From Thermodesulfobacteriota bacterium (GTDB lineage: Bacteria; Desulfobacterota; Desulfobulbia; Desulfobulbales; SURF-16), in NCBI GenBank assembly GCA_039715015.1, contig JBDLIE010000016.1:1-64000 (forward strand): a stretch of 64,000 nucleotides of DNA, read 5' to 3'. Shown piece after piece: positions 14,205 to 25,406 of this stretch (positions are counted from its first letter, which is position 1; each line of letters starts with the position of its first letter). The position numbers and the translations under genes were made by a program. A model generated the notes under the pieces. The model did not search any database. It was not told the DNA's origin and was given only the letters and a program-made list of their open reading frames with translations.

Positions 14205-14624
14205 ATGGCAGAAACAATTGAACTTGAGGTCGTAACCCCCTCAGGCCCGGTGGTAAGTGAGAATGTTGACATTGTCACTGCCCCTGGTTATGGCGGTGTT
14301 TTCGGCGTCCTTGCCAACCATGCCCCTTTTCTTTCCACCATTAAGATTGGCGAGTTGTCCTATAAACAGGACGGCAAAGAGCATGATTTAATGGTCAGCG
14401 GCGGCTTTTGTGAGGTGTCTCAAAATAAGATCACCTTTATCGTCGAAAGCTGTGAGAAAGGCACTGATATCGATATCGATCGTGCTCTGCTTGCCAAGGA
14501 AAGGGCGGAAAAACGTCTTGCTCAGGCCAAGGGCCAGCAGGAAAAACTTAATGAGGCCCGGGCCCGGGCTGCTTTGCAGCGTGCCCTTGCCCGTGTTCGT
14601 ATTGCTGAAAAAAGAGCTAAGTAG
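14205..14624 (+). CDS. atpC: ATP synthase F1 subunit epsilon
   Basis: [15 protein letters not shown] and VSGGF. Confidence 0.97.
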
Positions 14625-15516: not shown

Positions 15517-16929
15517 ATGAACGCCAAAGAGAGAATGGCCATTGATAGACAGACATGTGCCGAACTTTCTCCTGAAATCCGTATAGATAATTATGATGAG
15601 GTTTCCTTAGGTTTTACCGAAGAAAGTGTCAAAACAGAGGCCCTCAGATGTCTTCAGTGTAAAAAACCAGGTTGCCGCCAGGGTTGCCCCATTAACAACG
15701 ATATTCCTGCCTTTATAGGTCTCGTAGGAGAAGGGAGGTTTGAAGATGCGTATTGGAAGGTACGTGAAACCTCTTCTTTGCCTGCCATCTGTTCCCGGGT
15801 CTGTCCCCATGAAAATCAATGTGAAGGGGCCTGTATCCGTGCCAAGAAAGGCAAGGCTGTTGCCATTGGCCTCATAGAACGTTTTATGTCGGACTGGATG
15901 GTCCATCATCAAAAGAATATGAACGTTGCCTGTGCCGTCCCTAAGGGTAAAAAGGTGGCCATTGTCGGTTCTGGGCCGGCTGGTATGACCGCGGCTTATC
16001 ATCTTGCCCATGCTGGCTATGAGTGTTCCATTTATGAGTCTCTGCCGGTTATTGGCGGCATGCTCAAGGTTGGTATTCCCCCTTTTCGCTTGCCCCGTCA
16101 TATCTTGAATGCTGAATTTGCGGCCTTAAAGGATTGCGGCGTTAAGATTGTTCACGATGTCATGATCGGCAAGGATATTACCCTGGAACAACTTAAGACA
16201 GAGCACGGTTTTGACGCTGTTTTTGTTGGTGTTGGTGCCCACGCCAGCCGTAAGCTCGGTGTTGAAGGGGAGGATATGGCTGGCGTCAAGCATGGCATCG
16301 ATTATCTTCGCGAGGTACTTTCCGGCAATAAAGTAGATATTGGCGACAATGTGGTTGTTGTTGGTGGCGGTAATGTTGCCATTGATTGTGCCCGGGTCGC
16401 GCTTCGTGAAGGCTCTAAGAATGTCTTTATCCTCTACAGGAGAACCATCGAAGAGATGCCGGCATCCAGCGAAGAGATTCACCATCTCCAGCAGGAAGGA
16501 GTGAAGATTGAATTTCTCGCCGCCCCCGTCCAGGTTGTCGGTGAGAATGGTAAGATGACCGGTATCGAATGTGTAAAGATGGAGCTTGGCCCCCCCGATG
16601 ATTCCGGCAGAAGAAGGCCTGTTGAGATTGAAGGCTCAAATTTTGTTATTGATGCGGATTGTGTTATCCCGGCAATCAGCCAGAACGTCAACCATGATGT
16701 TGATGCGGGCCAGGAGTTTGAGCTGACAAGATGGGGCACTTATATTATCGATAAGACCACCTTTCAGACCAATGTTGACTGGATCTTCTCAGCCGGTGAC
16801 GCTGTACTTGGTCCCCAGACTGTTGCAAAGGCGGTTTATCAGGCCAAAGAGGCTGCTGAATCAATTGTTCGATATCTTGAAGGCCGTGACCTTAAAGAGG
16901 GTCGTGAGGTCAGGGATCTCGATTCGTAG
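15517..16929 (+). CDS. GltD/SudA/NfnB-like NADPH-dependent Fe-S flavoprotein
   Basis: RCLQC...C...CP and CSRVCP..QCE..C clusters, GSGPAG, GGGNVA, YRR and AGD motifs. Confidence 0.88.
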   Translation: MNAKERMAIDRQTCAELSPEIRIDNYDEVSLGFTEESVKTEALRCLQCKKPGCRQGCPINNDIPAFIGLVGEGRFEDAYWKVRETSSLPAICSRVCPHENQCEGACIRAKKGKAVAIGLIERFMSDWMVHHQKNMNVACAVPKGKKVAIVGSGPAGMTAAYHLAHAGYECSIYESLPVIGGMLKVGIPPFRLPRHILNAEFAALKDCGVKIVHDVMIGKDITLEQLKTEHGFDAVFVGVGAHASRKLGVEGEDMAGVKHGIDYLREVLSGNKVDIGDNVVVVGGGNVAIDCARVALREGSKNVFILYRRTIEEMPASSEEIHHLQQEGVKIEFLAAPVQVVGENGKMTGIECVKMELGPPDDSGRRRPVEIEGSNFVIDADCVIPAISQNVNHDVDAGQEFELTRWGTYIIDKTTFQTNVDWIFSAGDAVLGPQTVAKAVYQAKEAAESIVRYLEGRDLKEGREVRDLDS

Positions 16930-16998: not shown

Positions 16999-17331
16999 AT
17001 GCGGCAATTTGTTATAGATGAGTTGAGCGCCCAGGAGCGTGATAATCTTGACAGCTACCTGAAAAAGAGCCTCAAGTCTGGGCCCATGCTGGGGATGTTC
17101 TGGCTGCAACTTCCTGAAGATTTATGGTCAAAGGCCCAGAAGGGCCATGATGAATGCGGTCCTTTTTATTTTGGTGTTGAGCTCAGTAAGGATAAACTCA
17201 TCGTTGAGCTCTTGGTCCGAAGTGAGAGTAACCTGCACTGCTCCTGTATATCCTATGCCACTCCGTCCCAGCGGGAGTATGTCTTAGGCTTTGTCGATAC
17301 CATGATTGGCGAGGAGCATATCACTGCCTGA
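16999..17331 (+). CDS. Hypothetical protein
   Basis: 110-aa ORF in an operon-like position, with a CSC motif. Confidence 0.75.
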   Translation: MRQFVIDELSAQERDNLDSYLKKSLKSGPMLGMFWLQLPEDLWSKAQKGHDECGPFYFGVELSKDKLIVELLVRSESNLHCSCISYATPSQREYVLGFVDTMIGEEHITA

Positions 17332-17453: not shown

Positions 17454-18194
17454 ATGGCAGATTTTGAAGAATATTTGACGGTTGAACTCAAAAGCGAGAT
17501 GGCGAACAGCTATTTTGGCTTTCGCAAGCTCATTGAAGAGGATTCCCTTGAGTACAGGGACAAGGTCCGCCAATACTCCTTTATTCTCGAAAAAAGGATC
17601 AGTTTCGACCTGATCCGTATCTATATTCTCCTCCAGGCTGAAGAGCTCATTGATGCCTTTCTTGATCTTTGTAACCTAGAAAAAAAGCTCTTCTACGATC
17701 CCTATCTTATTGAGTCAGAAACAATCAGGGAAAGAGTATTTGAAAGTGTGCGTATGCGCGGCTTAACGCGTCAGGGCCGCTTTCAGAATTTTTTGGTGGA
17801 TTGTTATGATCGCCTCGACTTCCACATAAATAGCTATCGCAAGAAGTATAAAGAGCTTGAGGATATCCACGATGATATTGCTGAGGAGATAAAGCTTTTT
17901 GAGAAGAGGCATGACCTCTCGGCCATGATGAGCTTCCTCCACTCTTTAGGGGCCCAGCCTGTGGCTGGCAACATGGAGCAAGGTCTTGAGACAGGGGTGT
18001 CCTTGGCAATTGCCAAAAAGCTGAAAATAGATGTTCCTGAGGACGTTGAGTACCATCTCCCTGTCTTGCCAGAGCTTCCTGCCTATGGCGATATCAAAAA
18101 GGAGCTTTTCGCTCTGAGCGAACAGGCGTACGGCCTGCAGAAAGAATCGTTTCTCGTACTCTTTGCCAACAATTTCTTCAGGCCACGCGCCTGA
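17454..18194 (+). CDS. Hypothetical protein
   Basis: 246-aa ORF, probably helical; no family recognised. Confidence 0.75.
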   Translation: MADFEEYLTVELKSEMANSYFGFRKLIEEDSLEYRDKVRQYSFILEKRISFDLIRIYILLQAEELIDAFLDLCNLEKKLFYDPYLIESETIRERVFESVRMRGLTRQGRFQNFLVDCYDRLDFHINSYRKKYKELEDIHDDIAEEIKLFEKRHDLSAMMSFLHSLGAQPVAGNMEQGLETGVSLAIAKKLKIDVPEDVEYHLPVLPELPAYGDIKKELFALSEQAYGLQKESFLVLFANNFFRPRA

Positions 18195-19183: not shown

Positions 19184-20392
19184 TTACTGGTAGCGGTTTC
19201 TGATTGCTTTTAAGACGTCGGTGATTTCAAAAAAAATATCAACAATCTCTGGATCAAAATGTTTACCAGAGGCTGCTAGGATCTCAGCATAGATGTCTTC
19301 GTCATCCCAGGCCTCCTTGTAGGCGCGATCAGAGGAAAGGGCGTCATAAACATCAGCAAGAGCAGTGATTCTGGCCTCAAGTGGAATGGAATCGCCTCTC
19401 AGTGGTTGGCTGCCGCCGGGAAAAGATTTGTCTGGTGAGAGGTCAATAGAGCCGGGATAGCCACTTCCATCCCATTTCTCATGGTGGTGCAGTGCAATAT
19501 CCATGCTCATTTTGTCCAGGTGGGATGTGGTGTTGCTAAAGAGCCGGGCGCCAAGGACAGTATGCTGTTTAATCTTCGTGAACTCAGAGGAGTTTAGCCG
19601 CCCAGGTTTTTGTAGGATGATGTCGGCGATGCCGACCTTGCCAACATCATGAAGCATGGCAGCAAGACGAATCATATCGTGCCGGGATTTAAGCTCTTGG
19701 GAGTCAATATTGTTGACGATGGCCCAGCGCCGGAATATCTCAGCACTGTAGGCGCCAACCCTTTGAACATGGGCGCCGGTTTCCTTGGGGTCATGGAGCT
19801 CTGACATCTTTACCATCCGCAGGATAAGCTCTCTATTCATAACACCCCTTTCAATAGCAACAGCGGCATTGTTGGAAAAGAGCTGAAGATAGGTCTGTAT
19901 CTTTTCTGAAAACGGGATGGGCGTTTTGTTTTCGTCCAGGGCGTTAATAAGCTGCATTACCCCGGTTATCTGGTGATTAAAGGAATGAAGGGGGATGGCA
20001 AGAATGGAAACGGTCCGGTAGGAAAACTCTTTGTCAAAGGATGAATTGAAGGTACAGGGCAGGTGGCGGGGGAGATTATAGGCGTCATCAATGGCGATGG
20101 TTTCACCGGTTAGGGCGGCATGGCCGACGATGGAGGCATTGGTGCAGGGAACGTTGAGGTTGGTGTACTGGGCGGCCCGGTTGCCGTCCTCGCCATAGAG
20201 GCTGTCGTTTTGGACCTGGTTGAAGACCAGACTTTTGTCCTGGGTCAGGAAGATGGAGCCGGCATCTGCATTGGCAAGGCGGCGGGCCTTGTACAGAATG
20301 CGATCCAAGATCATATCAATATCATTAAGTTGGTCAAGCTCCTTAATGGCATTGAGGATGGAGAGTACCACTTCATCTGGCTGTTGCTGCAT
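19184..20392 (-). CDS. GAF + HD-GYP cyclic-di-GMP phosphodiesterase
   Basis: N-terminal GAF domain; HDVGK, HHEKWDGSGYP, ADVYDAL and RAYK. Confidence 0.92.
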   Translation of the reverse strand: MQQQPDEVVLSILNAIKELDQLNDIDMILDRILYKARRLANADAGSIFLTQDKSLVFNQVQNDSLYGEDGNRAAQYTNLNVPCTNASIVGHAALTGETIAIDDAYNLPRHLPCTFNSSFDKEFSYRTVSILAIPLHSFNHQITGVMQLINALDENKTPIPFSEKIQTYLQLFSNNAAVAIERGVMNRELILRMVKMSELHDPKETGAHVQRVGAYSAEIFRRWAIVNNIDSQELKSRHDMIRLAAMLHDVGKVGIADIILQKPGRLNSSEFTKIKQHTVLGARLFSNTTSHLDKMSMDIALHHHEKWDGSGYPGSIDLSPDKSFPGGSQPLRGDSIPLEARITALADVYDALSSDRAYKEAWDDEDIYAEILAASGKHFDPEIVDIFFEITDVLKAIRNRYQ

Positions 20393-20476
20393 AAAGAAAC
20401 CTTTAGTGAAAAAGGGCAAAAAAAGCGGTCAACTTAATTTACAGGGATATTATAGGGTGAAGTGATAAAAAAAAGA

Positions 20477-20640: not shown

Positions 20641-20681
20641 TAAAAAAGGGGCCTGAGCAATATGCTCAGGCCCCTTTTTTA
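20641..20681 (-). terminator. Intrinsic terminator ending the tusA-dsrE-like unit
   Basis: taaaaaaggggcctgagca-ata-tgctcaggcccctttttta hairpin with A/T tails. Confidence 0.9.
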
Positions 20682-20708: not shown

Positions 20709-20885
20709 CTACCACCAGCTGATGGTCTGATCTGCCTCGGAAATCATATCAACAAGCTTTGCGTAATCAGGTGATTCAACATCAAGGTTGAATTCAACAT
20801 TGTCGCGATCAGCGGAAACGATCTCTTTGAGCTTCTTGACATCATCGGTGATCTCAGCGGACCGCATAACGTGTAAGATTTTCAT
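20709..20885 (-). CDS. Small DsrH/TusB-like protein (58 aa, not in ORF track)
   Basis: My translation is MKILHVMRSAEITDDVKKLKEIVSADRDNVEFNLDVESPDYAKLVDMISEADQTISWW, with a GGAG RBS upstream. The N-terminal LH and C-terminal DY..LV.....D...SW resemble DsrH/TusB. Confidence 0.8.
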   Translation of the reverse strand: MKILHVMRSAEITDDVKKLKEIVSADRDNVEFNLDVESPDYAKLVDMISEADQTISWW

Positions 20886-20916
20886 CTTGATAACTCCGTA
20901 TTGAGGTTAATAGGTC

Positions 20917-21249
20917 TTAGCTTTTATCAGCTCTCAGAATACCGTAGGGGATGATATACTCAACATCCCGCAGCTTCTGGCCAAGCTCTTCCAAAGTAGT
21001 CTGGGTGAGGCCAAAATTCTCGGCGTTACACTCAGGCAGGGTAAAGCAATCGCCCTCCATGTCACGGAGCCATTCAACGTTTTCCATGTGGTACTCTTTC
21101 ATGTCTTTCTCGTTAACAGCAAGATCATTCAAGTCATTGTACATAACACAGCCGTAAGCATACATGTTCTCTACGGCAAGACCAAGAGCGGAGCGAATAC
21201 CATCAAGGGTGTATTCCCTGCTGGGCATTAAGAAAAATACTTTAGACAT
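20917..21249 (-). CDS. Hypothetical protein, DsrF/TusC-like
   Basis: DGIRSALGL and the terminal LEELGQKLRDVEYIIPY resemble DsrE/F-fold ends; sits between the DsrE-like and DsrH-like genes. Confidence 0.65.
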   Translation of the reverse strand: MSKVFFLMPSREYTLDGIRSALGLAVENMYAYGCVMYNDLNDLAVNEKDMKEYHMENVEWLRDMEGDCFTLPECNAENFGLTQTTLEELGQKLRDVEYIIPYGILRADKS

Positions 21250-21261
21250 TGTGTTCTCTCC

Positions 21262-21579
21262 TTATAAGCTCAGGTAGCAGTCATAGTCTTCGATGATAGC
21301 GCCATGCTGGGCCTGGGTGGCCATCTTAGTGCTGTCAAGACCTTCCGGGATGTCCTCAATGTCATAGCCAGCTTTCTTGTAGCTATCAACACAGATGGAA
21401 ACATCAACACCGTCCATTGCACAGAGCTTAGGAAACGCGCTGCATTTGGTCAGGTGAGTTGCAAACCAGGTAAAGAAAACCTTAACCTTGGCACCTTTAG
21501 CTACCGCGGCTTCGGTGACGCCCATAACATGCCGCATGTGCTGAGGAGATGTAACAAAAATACCAATACTCTTCGCCAT
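21262..21579 (-). CDS. DsrE-family sulfur relay protein
   Basis: AAVAKG..VKVFFT, conserved Cys in VSICVDS, terminal D...SL. Confidence 0.8.
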   Translation of the reverse strand: MAKSIGIFVTSPQHMRHVMGVTEAAVAKGAKVKVFFTWFATHLTKCSAFPKLCAMDGVDVSICVDSYKKAGYDIEDIPEGLDSTKMATQAQHGAIIEDYDCYLSL

Positions 21580-21601: not shown

Positions 21602-21632
21602 AAAAAAAGGCATATTCAGGAGTGAATATGCC
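21602..21632 (-). terminator. Internal terminator-like hairpin between tusA and the dsrE-like gene
   Basis: Minus strand reads GGCATATTCA-CTCC-TGAATATGCC followed by T7. Confidence 0.7.
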
Positions 21633-21658: not shown

Positions 21659-21916
21659 CTATTGTTTTTTCAAGTAGAAACGAATGAAACCAGAATCTTC
21701 TTTCTCTCCGAGGTACTCATGACCAGAGCGAGAGCACCAGCCAGGAAGATCGTTACGAGAACCTGGGTCAGTACCGAGGATTTCAAGGATTTCGCCGGCA
21801 TTAATTTTGTCGATCTCTTTTTTGGTGCGCAGCAGTGGCATGGGGCAGCTCAGACCTTTTGCATCCAAGGTGCGTGCAACTTCAAGTCCGTCAGGTGCGG
21901 TTAAATGATCACTCAT
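21659..21916 (-). CDS. tusA: TusA-family sulfur carrier protein
   Basis: LDAKGLSCPMP (CPxP motif) and TDPGSRND. Confidence 0.92.
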   Translation of the reverse strand: MSDHLTAPDGLEVARTLDAKGLSCPMPLLRTKKEIDKINAGEILEILGTDPGSRNDLPGWCSRSGHEYLGEKEDSGFIRFYLKKQ

Positions 21917-22023
21917 GGGGATCCTCCGTCAAAAAAAATTAGGTAAATTAAACACATGCGGCAGTGCCGCTTTAACCTCTCATGCGCCTATTGGCACAGG
22001 ATATAGCAAATTAAGATTTAAAG

Positions 22024-22074
22024 TGTCTAACAGGAATGGGGGGGGGTGTCAAGAGATAATGAATAGCGATTCAT
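22024..22074 (-). promoter_or_regulatory. Putative sigma70 promoter for tusA plus an upstream palindrome
   Basis: Minus strand TTGACA (22047-22052), a 17-nt spacer containing C9, then TG-n-TAGACA (22024-22029). Palindrome ATGAAT-AGCG-ATTCAT at 22059-22074. Confidence 0.5.
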
Positions 22075-22529
22075 ATCCGCTTTTTTGGGGGTGTAGACGG
22101 CCCTGGAAAAATGAGATGCCATTCAGCGAATTCTGGAAAAAAGCCGCCCCAATAAGTCATCTTATATTAGCCAGTTATCTATTTTTGGACGCAGCCTTGG
22201 CCCGTTGAAAAAATAAACGAGGAACACATCATTCTTGACAAACTAAAGCGCCATGGGTAATGAGGTTAGCTTTGACATTTTTATAACCGCTAAATTAATT
22301 AACTGATGGATATTTCGACTGATTAGGTATGAATACTTGGTCTGTTGTTAGATCCTTTAAGAAAGGGTTTGCGAAAAAAAATGAGATGGGTGCCGATTGG
22401 CGGTAATTCATTTCTTTTTTGGGCCGCAAAAGTTGGCAAATCCACGATCTGCTGGCCCCTCATTTCACACCTAAGGTTTTGGAGAGAACCGTGATTGAAT
22501 GGGCAGCATACTGAGGAAGAGGAGAAATT

Positions 22530-23840
22530 ATGAGTGAAGGAAGCATTATAGGCAACAAGGTCGGCGACCTGTACAAGCGTCTCTGTAAGGACGAATGGAA
22601 CCCGACAATCACCGGCCTTTCAGTCGGCCTCTTGAGTGTTTTGATCATGGCCTGGTGGCGTCCTTGGGGTGCTGTGGGCGCCATTCGCAACTGGGGCGAT
22701 TGGATGATGCACGGTTTTGCCAATATGGTTGGCGCCGAAGACGGCTTTCTGGAACTCTTTATTGAGGCTCCGGCCGGCTGGCTGGCAAGTTCCGGTTCCG
22801 TTATCGGTATCGGCTTTATTGGCGGCGCCTTTATCTCTGCCTGTCTGGGCGGAGATTTCGCCTTCAGAATTCCACCCCGTCTTGAGCTTGCTAAAGGTGT
22901 GATGGCCGGTATCCTGATGGGAATCGGCGCCGCCCTGTCCGGCGGCTGTAATGTCGGTGGTATGTATAACGCCATCGGTAACCTGTCAGCCAACGGCTTT
23001 ACCATGTGGCTTGGCCTGGTGATCGGTGTGGTTGTTGGTCTTAAATATATCTACTGGGAGATGTCCAATATCACCTGGGGCAGTGGTGGCGCAGCGACCT
23101 TTGATTTTCCCCAAGGTATGAAGACCTTCCTCGGCTTTGTCGGTCTTGCCGCCCTTATTATCGGCGCCATGAAATATGCCGGTATTGACGATGTTGAAGG
23201 TATTGACGCCATTGGCGGCGTGCTCTTCTCCGGTGAGAAAGATGCCGAGTATCTTCAGTCTCTCGGCGGCCTGCTGATGATTGCTGCCGGTCTCGGGTAT
23301 GCTATGCAGCGCGGACGCTGGTGTATGGTTCAGGGTTTCCGTGAACCCCATATGACCGGTGACTGTAGCCTTGCCAAGTCCGTGGCCCTGAGTATCACCG
23401 TGGTTGCCATTGGCGCTGCTGTCCTCAAGTATGGTGTGCCCATGCGCGGTGACGGTAGCCCGGTATTGGCTGAGATTAACTATGTGCGCGGCACCTTTGG
23501 TTGGGGCTCCATTGTCGGTGGCGCCATCTTCGGCTTCGGCGCCATGCTGGCCGGTGGTTGCGGTTCCGGTACCCTCTGGCGTGTTGGCGAGGGCCAGGTG
23601 AAGCTGATCCTGGTTGTGCCCTTCTTTGCCCTGGCCAACTCCCTGATGACCAAATGGTTCAAGAATTTCGGTGCTGATCAGATCAACCTGGAGCGCGAAG
23701 GCAAGCTTGGTAAATATGTCTATATGCCCGATGCAATGGGCTACACCGGTACCCTGCTTTTGATCGCTGGTATTATGATCGTCTGGTACCTGGTAGTTAC
23801 CTGGAACGAAGAGTCTAACAAGCTGATTGTTGACTTCTAG
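22530..23840 (+). CDS. YeeE/YedE-family sulfur-compound transporter
   Basis: Multi-TM and Gly-rich; three conserved Cys motifs GGCNVG, RWCM and GGCGSG. Confidence 0.9.
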   Translation: MSEGSIIGNKVGDLYKRLCKDEWNPTITGLSVGLLSVLIMAWWRPWGAVGAIRNWGDWMMHGFANMVGAEDGFLELFIEAPAGWLASSGSVIGIGFIGGAFISACLGGDFAFRIPPRLELAKGVMAGILMGIGAALSGGCNVGGMYNAIGNLSANGFTMWLGLVIGVVVGLKYIYWEMSNITWGSGGAATFDFPQGMKTFLGFVGLAALIIGAMKYAGIDDVEGIDAIGGVLFSGEKDAEYLQSLGGLLMIAAGLGYAMQRGRWCMVQGFREPHMTGDCSLAKSVALSITVVAIGAAVLKYGVPMRGDGSPVLAEINYVRGTFGWGSIVGGAIFGFGAMLAGGCGSGTLWRVGEGQVKLILVVPFFALANSLMTKWFKNFGADQINLEREGKLGKYVYMPDAMGYTGTLLLIAGIMIVWYLVVTWNEESNKLIVDF

Positions 23841-23940: not shown

Positions 23941-24429
23941 TTAAAAAAGGCGCCAGATATAATAGGCCATGCCTAAGGCAATCAGAAGTTCCAGGGCAAA
24001 GGAGGCGAGGATGCCCACCACGGCGCCGGCCCCTGATTTAGCGGCTTCACGTAACTCTTTTTGTTCAAAATAGAGTTCGCAGAGAAGACCGCCGGCAAAG
24101 GCCCCGATGAATATGCCGCCTGCTATGGGAATGAAAAAGCCGATGATAAGGCCGATGGTGGCCCCCCAAATTCCTTTCTGTGAACCGCCGAAATGACGAG
24201 CTCCCAGAATGGTGAGGAGGTACTGGCTCCCCCAGGCTGCCAGGGCAAAGAGGGTCAATATCATAATATGTAATAAGGTCAGAGGCTGAAAGTCGGTGAG
24301 CAGGCCATGGATGAGGGCGCCGACAACAATGATCGATGGCCCGGGCAGGATTGGCAAAAAGGTGCCGATAATACCCATGACAAGAAAAATGACGAGAAGA
24401 AGGTCGGCAAGGGAAGGGGGCCAGGGCAT
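23941..24429 (-). CDS. DUF456-family membrane protein
   Basis: GTFLPILPG, GARHFGGS..G.WGA..G; Gly-rich TM segments. Confidence 0.85.
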   Translation of the reverse strand: MPWPPSLADLLLVIFLVMGIIGTFLPILPGPSIIVVGALIHGLLTDFQPLTLLHIMILTLFALAAWGSQYLLTILGARHFGGSQKGIWGATIGLIIGFFIPIAGGIFIGAFAGGLLCELYFEQKELREAAKSGAGAVVGILASFALELLIALGMAYYIWRLF

Positions 24430-24593
24430 GGTATGGGCTCCTTTGGGCGGTTTGTGATTTTAAAATATTTTACTGATCTGTGCCCATAACCGTAAACCGG
24501 AAGGGTGCAGGCGTAAATAAGAATAATCGCTGGTGATTGCCTCGGGTTCGATTTGGAGAACCACTGCTAATTATCAGATTTGAAAGTAATTTT

Positions 24594-25406
24594 ATGGAAA
24601 TTCTCTATGCAATATTTCTCGGCTTCCTGCAGGGCGCCACGGAGTTTCTGCCTGTCTCAAGCTCCGGGCATCTGCTTCTTGCCGAGTATTTTTTCGGGGT
24701 GGAAGAGGCAGGCCTGACCTTTGATGTCATCCTCCATCTCGCCACCTTGGCAGCCATTCTCGCCTATTTTCGCAAGGATCTCGGCAATCTGCTGTTGGCC
24801 TTTTTCGGAAGTTATGGCCCGGAGCGCGGACCCCAGGAACGGCGGATGGCTTTTTATATCTGCTATGCCACGGTCCCGGCGGTTTTGGTTGGCCTCTTAT
24901 TGGGGCATTATGTCGAAACCACCCTGCGTTCTCCGTTGCTCGTTGCCTTTACCTTGAGTGGTGCTGGACTGCTGCTCTGGTGGGCTGAAAAAAAAGGTAA
25001 AAAACAGCGTAGTTTTTCTTCCATGGGCTTTTGGGATGCCATGATAATCGGCTGCGCCCAGGCCTTGGCTCTGGTGCCGGGGGTTTCCCGAAGCGGTTCC
25101 ACCATTACGGCCGGCCTTTTCTTGGGACTTAACCGTGTGGCTGCAGCCCGTTTCTCCTTCCTGCTCTCTGCTCCGGTTATTCTGGGGGCTGGCTGCTATA
25201 AGGTGATTAAGCTTTTTGCCGGTCCCGGGCTAGAGAATGGCCAGTATCTCTTTTATGGGGTCGGATTTCTCTCCTCAGCTATCTCCGGCTATGCCTTTAT
25301 TGCTCTGCTCATGCGTTTTGTCCAGAGTCACTCCCTGGCTGTCTTTGCCTATTATCGATTTTTTCTGACGGCTCTGGTATTATCTGCCCTGGCTTTGGGA
25401 TATTGA
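24594..25406 (+). CDS. uppP: Undecaprenyl-diphosphate phosphatase
   Basis: QGATEFLPVSSSGH, PGVSRSGST and ARFSFLLS. Confidence 0.95.
   Translation: MEILYAIFLGFLQGATEFLPVSSSGHLLLAEYFFGVEEAGLTFDVILHLATLAAILAYFRKDLGNLLLAFFGSYGPERGPQERRMAFYICYATVPAVLVGLLLGHYVETTLRSPLLVAFTLSGAGLLLWWAEKKGKKQRSFSSMGFWDAMIIGCAQALALVPGVSRSGSTITAGLFLGLNRVAAARFSFLLSAPVILGAGCYKVIKLFAGPGLENGQYLFYGVGFLSSAISGYAFIALLMRFVQSHSLAVFAYYRFFLTALVLSALALGY

Follow-up and report, generated by a model that had tools for sequence, protein, structure and literature searches.

A yeeE–tusA–dsrEFH cluster with a probable type II DsrEFH and a shortened DsrH in a Thermodesulfobacteriota bacterium

Introduction

What do three small genes that follow tusA in a genome of Thermodesulfobacteriota encode? 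In the window analyzed here (the whole 64,000-nt stretch, positions 1–64,000 of contig JBDLIE010000016.1, assembly GCA_039715015.1), the minus strand carries tusA and ORFs of 105, 110, and 58 amino acids (aa), in that order. The original prediction, made from the nucleotide sequence, had read the three ORFs as dsrE, dsrF, and dsrH, the last two in miniature form, and had proposed a reduced DsrEFH analogue linking TusA to DsrC in a reducer-type lineage.

Type II DsrEFH has been characterized from Electronema aureum GS (Plum-Jensen et al., ISME J 2026; PMC13293266), where complex formation, TusA–DsrE sulfur transfer requiring Cys67, and one-way transfer to DsrC were demonstrated; the authors provide three HMMs with a cut-off of 80 bits. 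The name of the yeeE–tusA–dsrEFH (YTD) cluster is credited in the literature to Umezawa et al. (2020). We conclude that the three small genes of the window are very probably the dsrE, dsrF, and dsrH of a type II DsrEFH in such a cluster. The implied novelty is lost: two 2026 papers (PMC13293266, PMC13047784) had already made the identification, and laboratory work on the YTD proteins appeared in that year, so that the prediction is correct yet not new.

Results

Organization of the locus

The components of the locus are listed in Table 1. The product of yeeE matches the TsuA/YedE NCBIfam models, with scores below the cut-off. Divergent tusA and yeeE are separated by a 613-nt gap (21917–22529), in which promoter-like sites occur at the chance level (3 vs. 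3.5) and no Rfam match was found. The flanks are ordinary, with genes for a GAF + HD-domain protein (19184–20419, minus strand), a DUF456 protein (23941–24429, minus strand), and a BacA-family phosphatase (24537–25406, plus strand). Farther away, an ATP synthase operon ends near position 14624, and a 470-aa protein with Fer4_20 and pyridine-nucleotide oxidoreductase domains, presumably a glutamate synthase small subunit or NfnA-like, is encoded at 15517–16929 (plus strand), followed by two ORFs (16999–17331, 17454–18194) with no Pfam match.

Table 1. Features of the YTD locus in the window, and TusB/DsrH-like proteins of other loci.
Feature	Position	Strand	Basis
yeeE/yedE-family sulfur transporter, 436 aa, divergent from tusA	22530..23840	+	PF04143, E 1e-40
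tusA, sulfur carrier, 85 aa, CPMP motif at Cys24	21659..21916	-	PF01206, E 7e-25; Cys positions
Terminator-like hairpin in the tusA/dsrE spacer, 10 pairs + U-run	21609..21632	-	z -3.84
dsrE, probable type II, 105 aa	21262..21579	-	profile comparison
Codon of Cys63, putative persulfide site of DsrE	21391..21393	-	conservation, motif likeness
dsrF, probable type II, 110 aa, 12.7 kDa	20917..21249	-	profile comparison, fold
GGAG, Shine–Dalgarno-like, 8 nt 5' of the ATG of the 58-aa ORF	20894..20897	-	sequence
dsrH, probable type II, 58 aa, 6.7 kDa, cysteine-free	20709..20885	-	profile comparison
Operon-closing terminator-like hairpin, 19 pairs, 3' of the dsrH stop	20641..20681	-	hairpin search
TusB/DsrH-like protein (77–90 aa)	L108:1489-1758		
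TusB/DsrH-like protein (77–90 aa)	L109:1489-1746		
TusB/DsrH-like protein (77–90 aa)	L105:1486-1737		
TusB/DsrH-like protein (77–90 aa)	L100:478-708		

Assignment of DsrE and DsrF

None of the three proteins scored above the cut-off of the NCBIfam models for TusD/DsrE, TusC/DsrF, or TusB/DsrH, and the match of the 105-aa protein to PF02635 (E 0.002) is below the cut-off as well. The E–F–H assignment holds by profile comparison, and for F also by fold, so that the subunit identities behind the predicted gene order are supported. The 105-aa protein matches the DsrE/TusD-like set (98% profile match), and the window dsrE is the sole match in the genome for the profile of non-type-II DsrE-like proteins. 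The 110-aa protein matches the DsrF/TusC-like set (92% profile match over 94 columns), and the seven best hits in the fold search with its AlphaFold2 model (pLDDT 90.7) all have the DsrE/F fold, in agreement with the DsrE/F-like character ascribed to the middle ORF from its ends. Its mass, 12736 Da, is close to the published 12725 Da.

Cys63 of DsrE is invariant in all 76 sequences (76/76). It aligns to Cys78 of TusD, in an alignment that is non-significant when taken alone, and its surroundings, SICVDS, agree with the published AI(C)ADS site as read from a mutagenesis primer; the primer-derived LCGEED/AI(C)ADS motif fits those relatives whose cysteine stands at position 67. From these comparisons we infer that Cys63 is likely the persulfide site, equivalent to Cys67 of E. 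aureum and Cys78 of TusD.

The 58-aa ORF and its relation to DsrH

The 58-aa ORF has the predicted MKILH start, DYAKLVDMISEADQTISWW end, and GGAG ribosome-binding site. All candidate relatives found at E<=0.001 (46/46) were true relatives, the protein profile retrieved 413 representatives at 50% identity among 1.84 billion sequences, and comparison with ten close relatives yielded dN/dS of 0.09–0.21 (differences by codon position 41/54/170). Given these relatives, the breadth of the profile, and the dN/dS values, the ORF is a genuine gene and not a chance frame. A Shine–Dalgarno-like word precedes the H gene in 63 of 69 distinct upstream regions, and a terminator-like hairpin follows it in 48 of 77 distinct downstream ones.

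The protein matches the DsrH/TusB-like set (98% profile match), is modeled by AlphaFold2 as β-α-β-α-β (pLDDT 93), and has a mass of 6740 Da compared to 6814 Da published. The description of both small proteins as miniature is apt for H (58 vs. 95 aa in TusB), but not for F, which has 110 aa vs. 119 in E. coli TusC.

The 77–90-aa proteins of four other loci (Table 1) begin with MKILH and end like the window DsrH. The largest, with 90 aa (L108), passes the TIGR03011 TusB/DsrH cut-off (52.4 vs. 49.2 bits), and the H-family profile finds all four with E values between 3e-17 and 5e-11 in a set of 44 sequences. The global alignment contains two gaps in H, of ~23 and ~16 columns, spanning the middle of DsrH. 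Taken together, the ends and scores of the bridging proteins and the gaps of the global alignment support homology by deletion: type II DsrH may be a true homologue of DsrH/TusB that has lost ~40 internal residues, and the 77–90-aa TusB-like proteins encoded elsewhere in the phylum may link types I and II. Three points call for caution: the local match covers 21 columns, the bridging triplets were not placed as a sister of type II in the DsrE tree, and the case for homology has been made before in PMC13293266, together with a subtype closer to type I to which such 77–90-aa proteins may belong. The complex is called a non-orthologous structural analogue in PMC13047784. As to the "reduced DsrEFH analogue" of the prediction, the sequence bridge points to homology rather than to mere analogy.

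Other arrangements of these genes were also seen. In L100, L108, and L109, two E–F–H-like triplets stand in tandem, followed by tusA; genes for a PLP enzyme, a JAB protein, and a glycine-cleavage-H protein adjoin the triplets in L108, L105, and L101. H–E–F-like triplets follow a gene of 143–148 aa (L103, L104, L110–L112, L115, L116), often near transposase-like genes and, within one genome, in several copies; their DsrE-like proteins form a long branch of their own. P0169 (217 aa) and P0260 (131 aa) contain a full H-like domain (residues 1–57 and 73–131, respectively) within longer proteins, possibly fusions or misassemblies.

Distribution and synteny

Of 91 loci, 81 show the order tusA–E–F–H and 89 have H immediately after F; the window is counted twice in this sample, as are several of the genomes. 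The exceptions are mostly contig ends, with three loci lacking a nearby tusA and one rearranged (L089, tusA–F–H–E). A divergent yeeE is present in 26 of the 31 loci with 4-kb flanks. Out of 201 genomes from the order, 175 contain a match to the 110-aa protein, and for the DsrE-like protein the figure is 53 out of 301 from the phylum; the closest named relatives are metagenome-assembled genomes labeled Desulfurivibrionaceae and Desulfobulbaceae.

The hairpin between tusA and dsrE

A strict terminator test was passed by 14 of 72 distinct tusA/dsrE spacers vs. 0.1 expected from shuffles, 11 of the 14 belonging to the window and its closest kin. Among 16 hairpin-bearing spacers, six of nine pairs change on both sides, a count biased towards compensation because these spacers were selected for showing a hairpin. 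In the lineage of the window, the hairpin may partly uncouple the expression of TusA from that of DsrEFH-II, which would proceed via partial termination or a stabilized tusA message. The co-transcription of these genes in E. aureum and the roughly equal expression of tusA and dsrEFH in Desulfurivibrio alkaliphilus (PMC13047784) speak against a strong terminator. A literature search on the tusA/dsrE hairpin retrieved no paper. Both the DsrH-homology bridge and the hairpin may go beyond the two 2026 papers; that DsrH is a true homologue and that the hairpin uncouples tusA from dsrE is, as a joint claim, a tentative one, somewhat short of probable.

Genomic context

On contig C15, the genome (completeness 99.99% per its record) has a dsrA that exceeds the cut-off, with dsrB and dsrD next in order. 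A dsrC whose product ends in C-x10-C lies on contig C10, with two weaker DsrC-like matches besides, and aprA and sat are also present. We take dsrD next to dsrAB to be a sign of the reductive type, and hence assign these dsrAB to it, from the neighboring gene and not from a DsrAB tree. Three TusA-domain matches were found; a single 204-aa open frame (C6:39708-40295), apart from the YTD cluster, combines a TusA domain with a DsrE domain and is presumably YedF-like. Searches of the genome with PF04077 and TIGR03010 gave no match, that is, type I dsrF and dsrH were not found. Two napA genes exceed the cut-off (C13:21790-24297, C39:7205-9511), and no NrfA-type match does; given the two napA, the genome fits a nitrate-coupled sulfur oxidizer or a disproportionator. 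For such a gene set-up, reversed DsrAB has been proposed (PMC13293266).

Discussion

Comparison with known systems

The window shares with type II of E. aureum the gene set and order, the subunit sizes (12.7 kDa for F, 6.7–6.8 kDa for H), the conserved DsrE cysteine within an I-C-x-D-S motif, and the co-occurrence with dsrABD and dsrC, type I dsrF/H not being found. It differs in that DsrE has 105 aa with the cysteine at position 63 instead of 67, DsrH is cysteine-free, with Ser at a position occupied by Cys in 56 of 76 relatives, DsrF carries a short lineage-specific insertion, and the tusA/dsrE spacer contains a terminator-like hairpin. All of these are variations within one kind of system. 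The window copy very probably behaves like its E. aureum orthologue.

TusBCD of E. coli serves tRNA 2-thiouridine synthesis. Its fold family and gene order (PDB 2D1P) are those of the window, while the window proteins are not matched by the NCBIfam TusB/C/D models. The type I DsrEFH found in Allochromatium vinosum (PDB 2HY5) is less than 30% identical to type II (PMC13293266), and the window proteins fail the Pfam/NCBIfam models. Full-length DsrH has ~95–102 aa (with Cys20 in A. vinosum) compared to 58 aa and no cysteine in the window; type II DsrH is, according to PMC13047784, ~40 residues shorter and devoid of Cys20. Type II accompanies dsrAB of the reductive, not the oxidative type.

Proposed sulfur route

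Sulfane sulfur would enter via YeeE, be bound by Cys24 of TusA as a persulfide, and be handed over to Cys63 of DsrE. DsrE, DsrF, and DsrH would assemble 1:1:1 as a trimer and partly a hexamer, with DsrF and the cysteine-free DsrH likely serving as scaffold subunits. The predicted heterohexamer needs correcting on this point: the type II complex characterized so far elutes for the most part as a heterotrimer, the hexamer giving a smaller peak. The complex would then pass sulfur to DsrC, feeding DsrAB of this genome. Oxidation up to sulfate could be completed by DsrAB, Apr, and Sat, either with nitrate possibly serving as acceptor or within the oxidative half of a disproportionation. The predicted TusA-to-DsrC link in a reducer-type lineage is borne out by the role shown in vitro for the E. 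aureum complex (PMC13293266). The weak points of the published chain are that TusA also loads DsrC directly and that the Cys67Ser complex still transferred sulfur to DsrC (PMC13293266).

Alternative explanations

That the 58-aa ORF is no DsrH homologue, being either spurious or an unrelated small α/β protein filling its place, is highly improbable. This would explain the absence of a match for the protein in family-model searches, and PMC13047784 reports that a proper alignment to the sequence of canonical DsrH was not obtained; but the ORF is under purifying selection, the H-family profile finds the 90-aa TIGR03011-passing protein (E 2e-16 in the 44-sequence test set), its 14 best matches in this set are all DsrH-like, and a 6.8-kDa orthologue was co-purified with DsrE and DsrF in published work, so that the non-DsrH reading is largely refuted. 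There is a small chance that the complex is a biosynthetic, TusBCD-like relay for tRNA thiolation or cofactor sulfur, outside energy metabolism. TusBCD shares the fold and the gene order, those non-type-II triplets that come closest in similarity adjoin the PLP-enzyme, JAB, and glycine-cleavage-H genes, and the genome yielded no type I dsrF/dsrH; on the other hand, the published orthologues are found together with reductive dsrAB in 73.9% of genomes (PMC13293266) and rank among the genes with high expression in cable bacteria, and the neighborhood of the cluster showed no gene for tRNA modification.

The direction of the flux in vivo is contested between PMC13293266 and PMC13047784. The same complex might take sulfide or sulfite from a thiosulfate-decomposing step of YeeE and TusA (YeeD), serving disproportionation and not oxidation by reversed DsrAB. 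We regard this as unlikely, albeit worth serious consideration: such a model is put forward in PMC13047784, all five YTD proteins are raised during thiosulfate disproportionation in Desulfolithobacter (PMC9751629), and the adjacent yeeE is TsuA/YeeE-like, but thiosulfate failed to persulfidate TusA, DsrEFH-II, or DsrC in vitro, and the cluster occurs in just 25 of 63 known disproportionators (PMC13293266). It leaves the identity of the subunits uncontested. Oxidative flux, in which either sulfide or S0 is oxidized at the expense of nitrate or the complex works in the oxidative branch of a disproportionation, is the reading that we favor with some caution.

Biological implications

The locus is one more copy of the YTD cluster published in 2026, and its E–F–H assignment proved recoverable from sequence alone, without tools. 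If the uncoupling is real, the hairpin would set the ratio of carrier to transferase at the RNA level. Type II DsrEFH supplies the missing step from TusA to DsrC in organisms oxidizing sulfur via reductive-type DsrAB, and may be the mark of a concealed capacity for oxidation in roughly one fifth of the sulfate reducers (PMC13293266).
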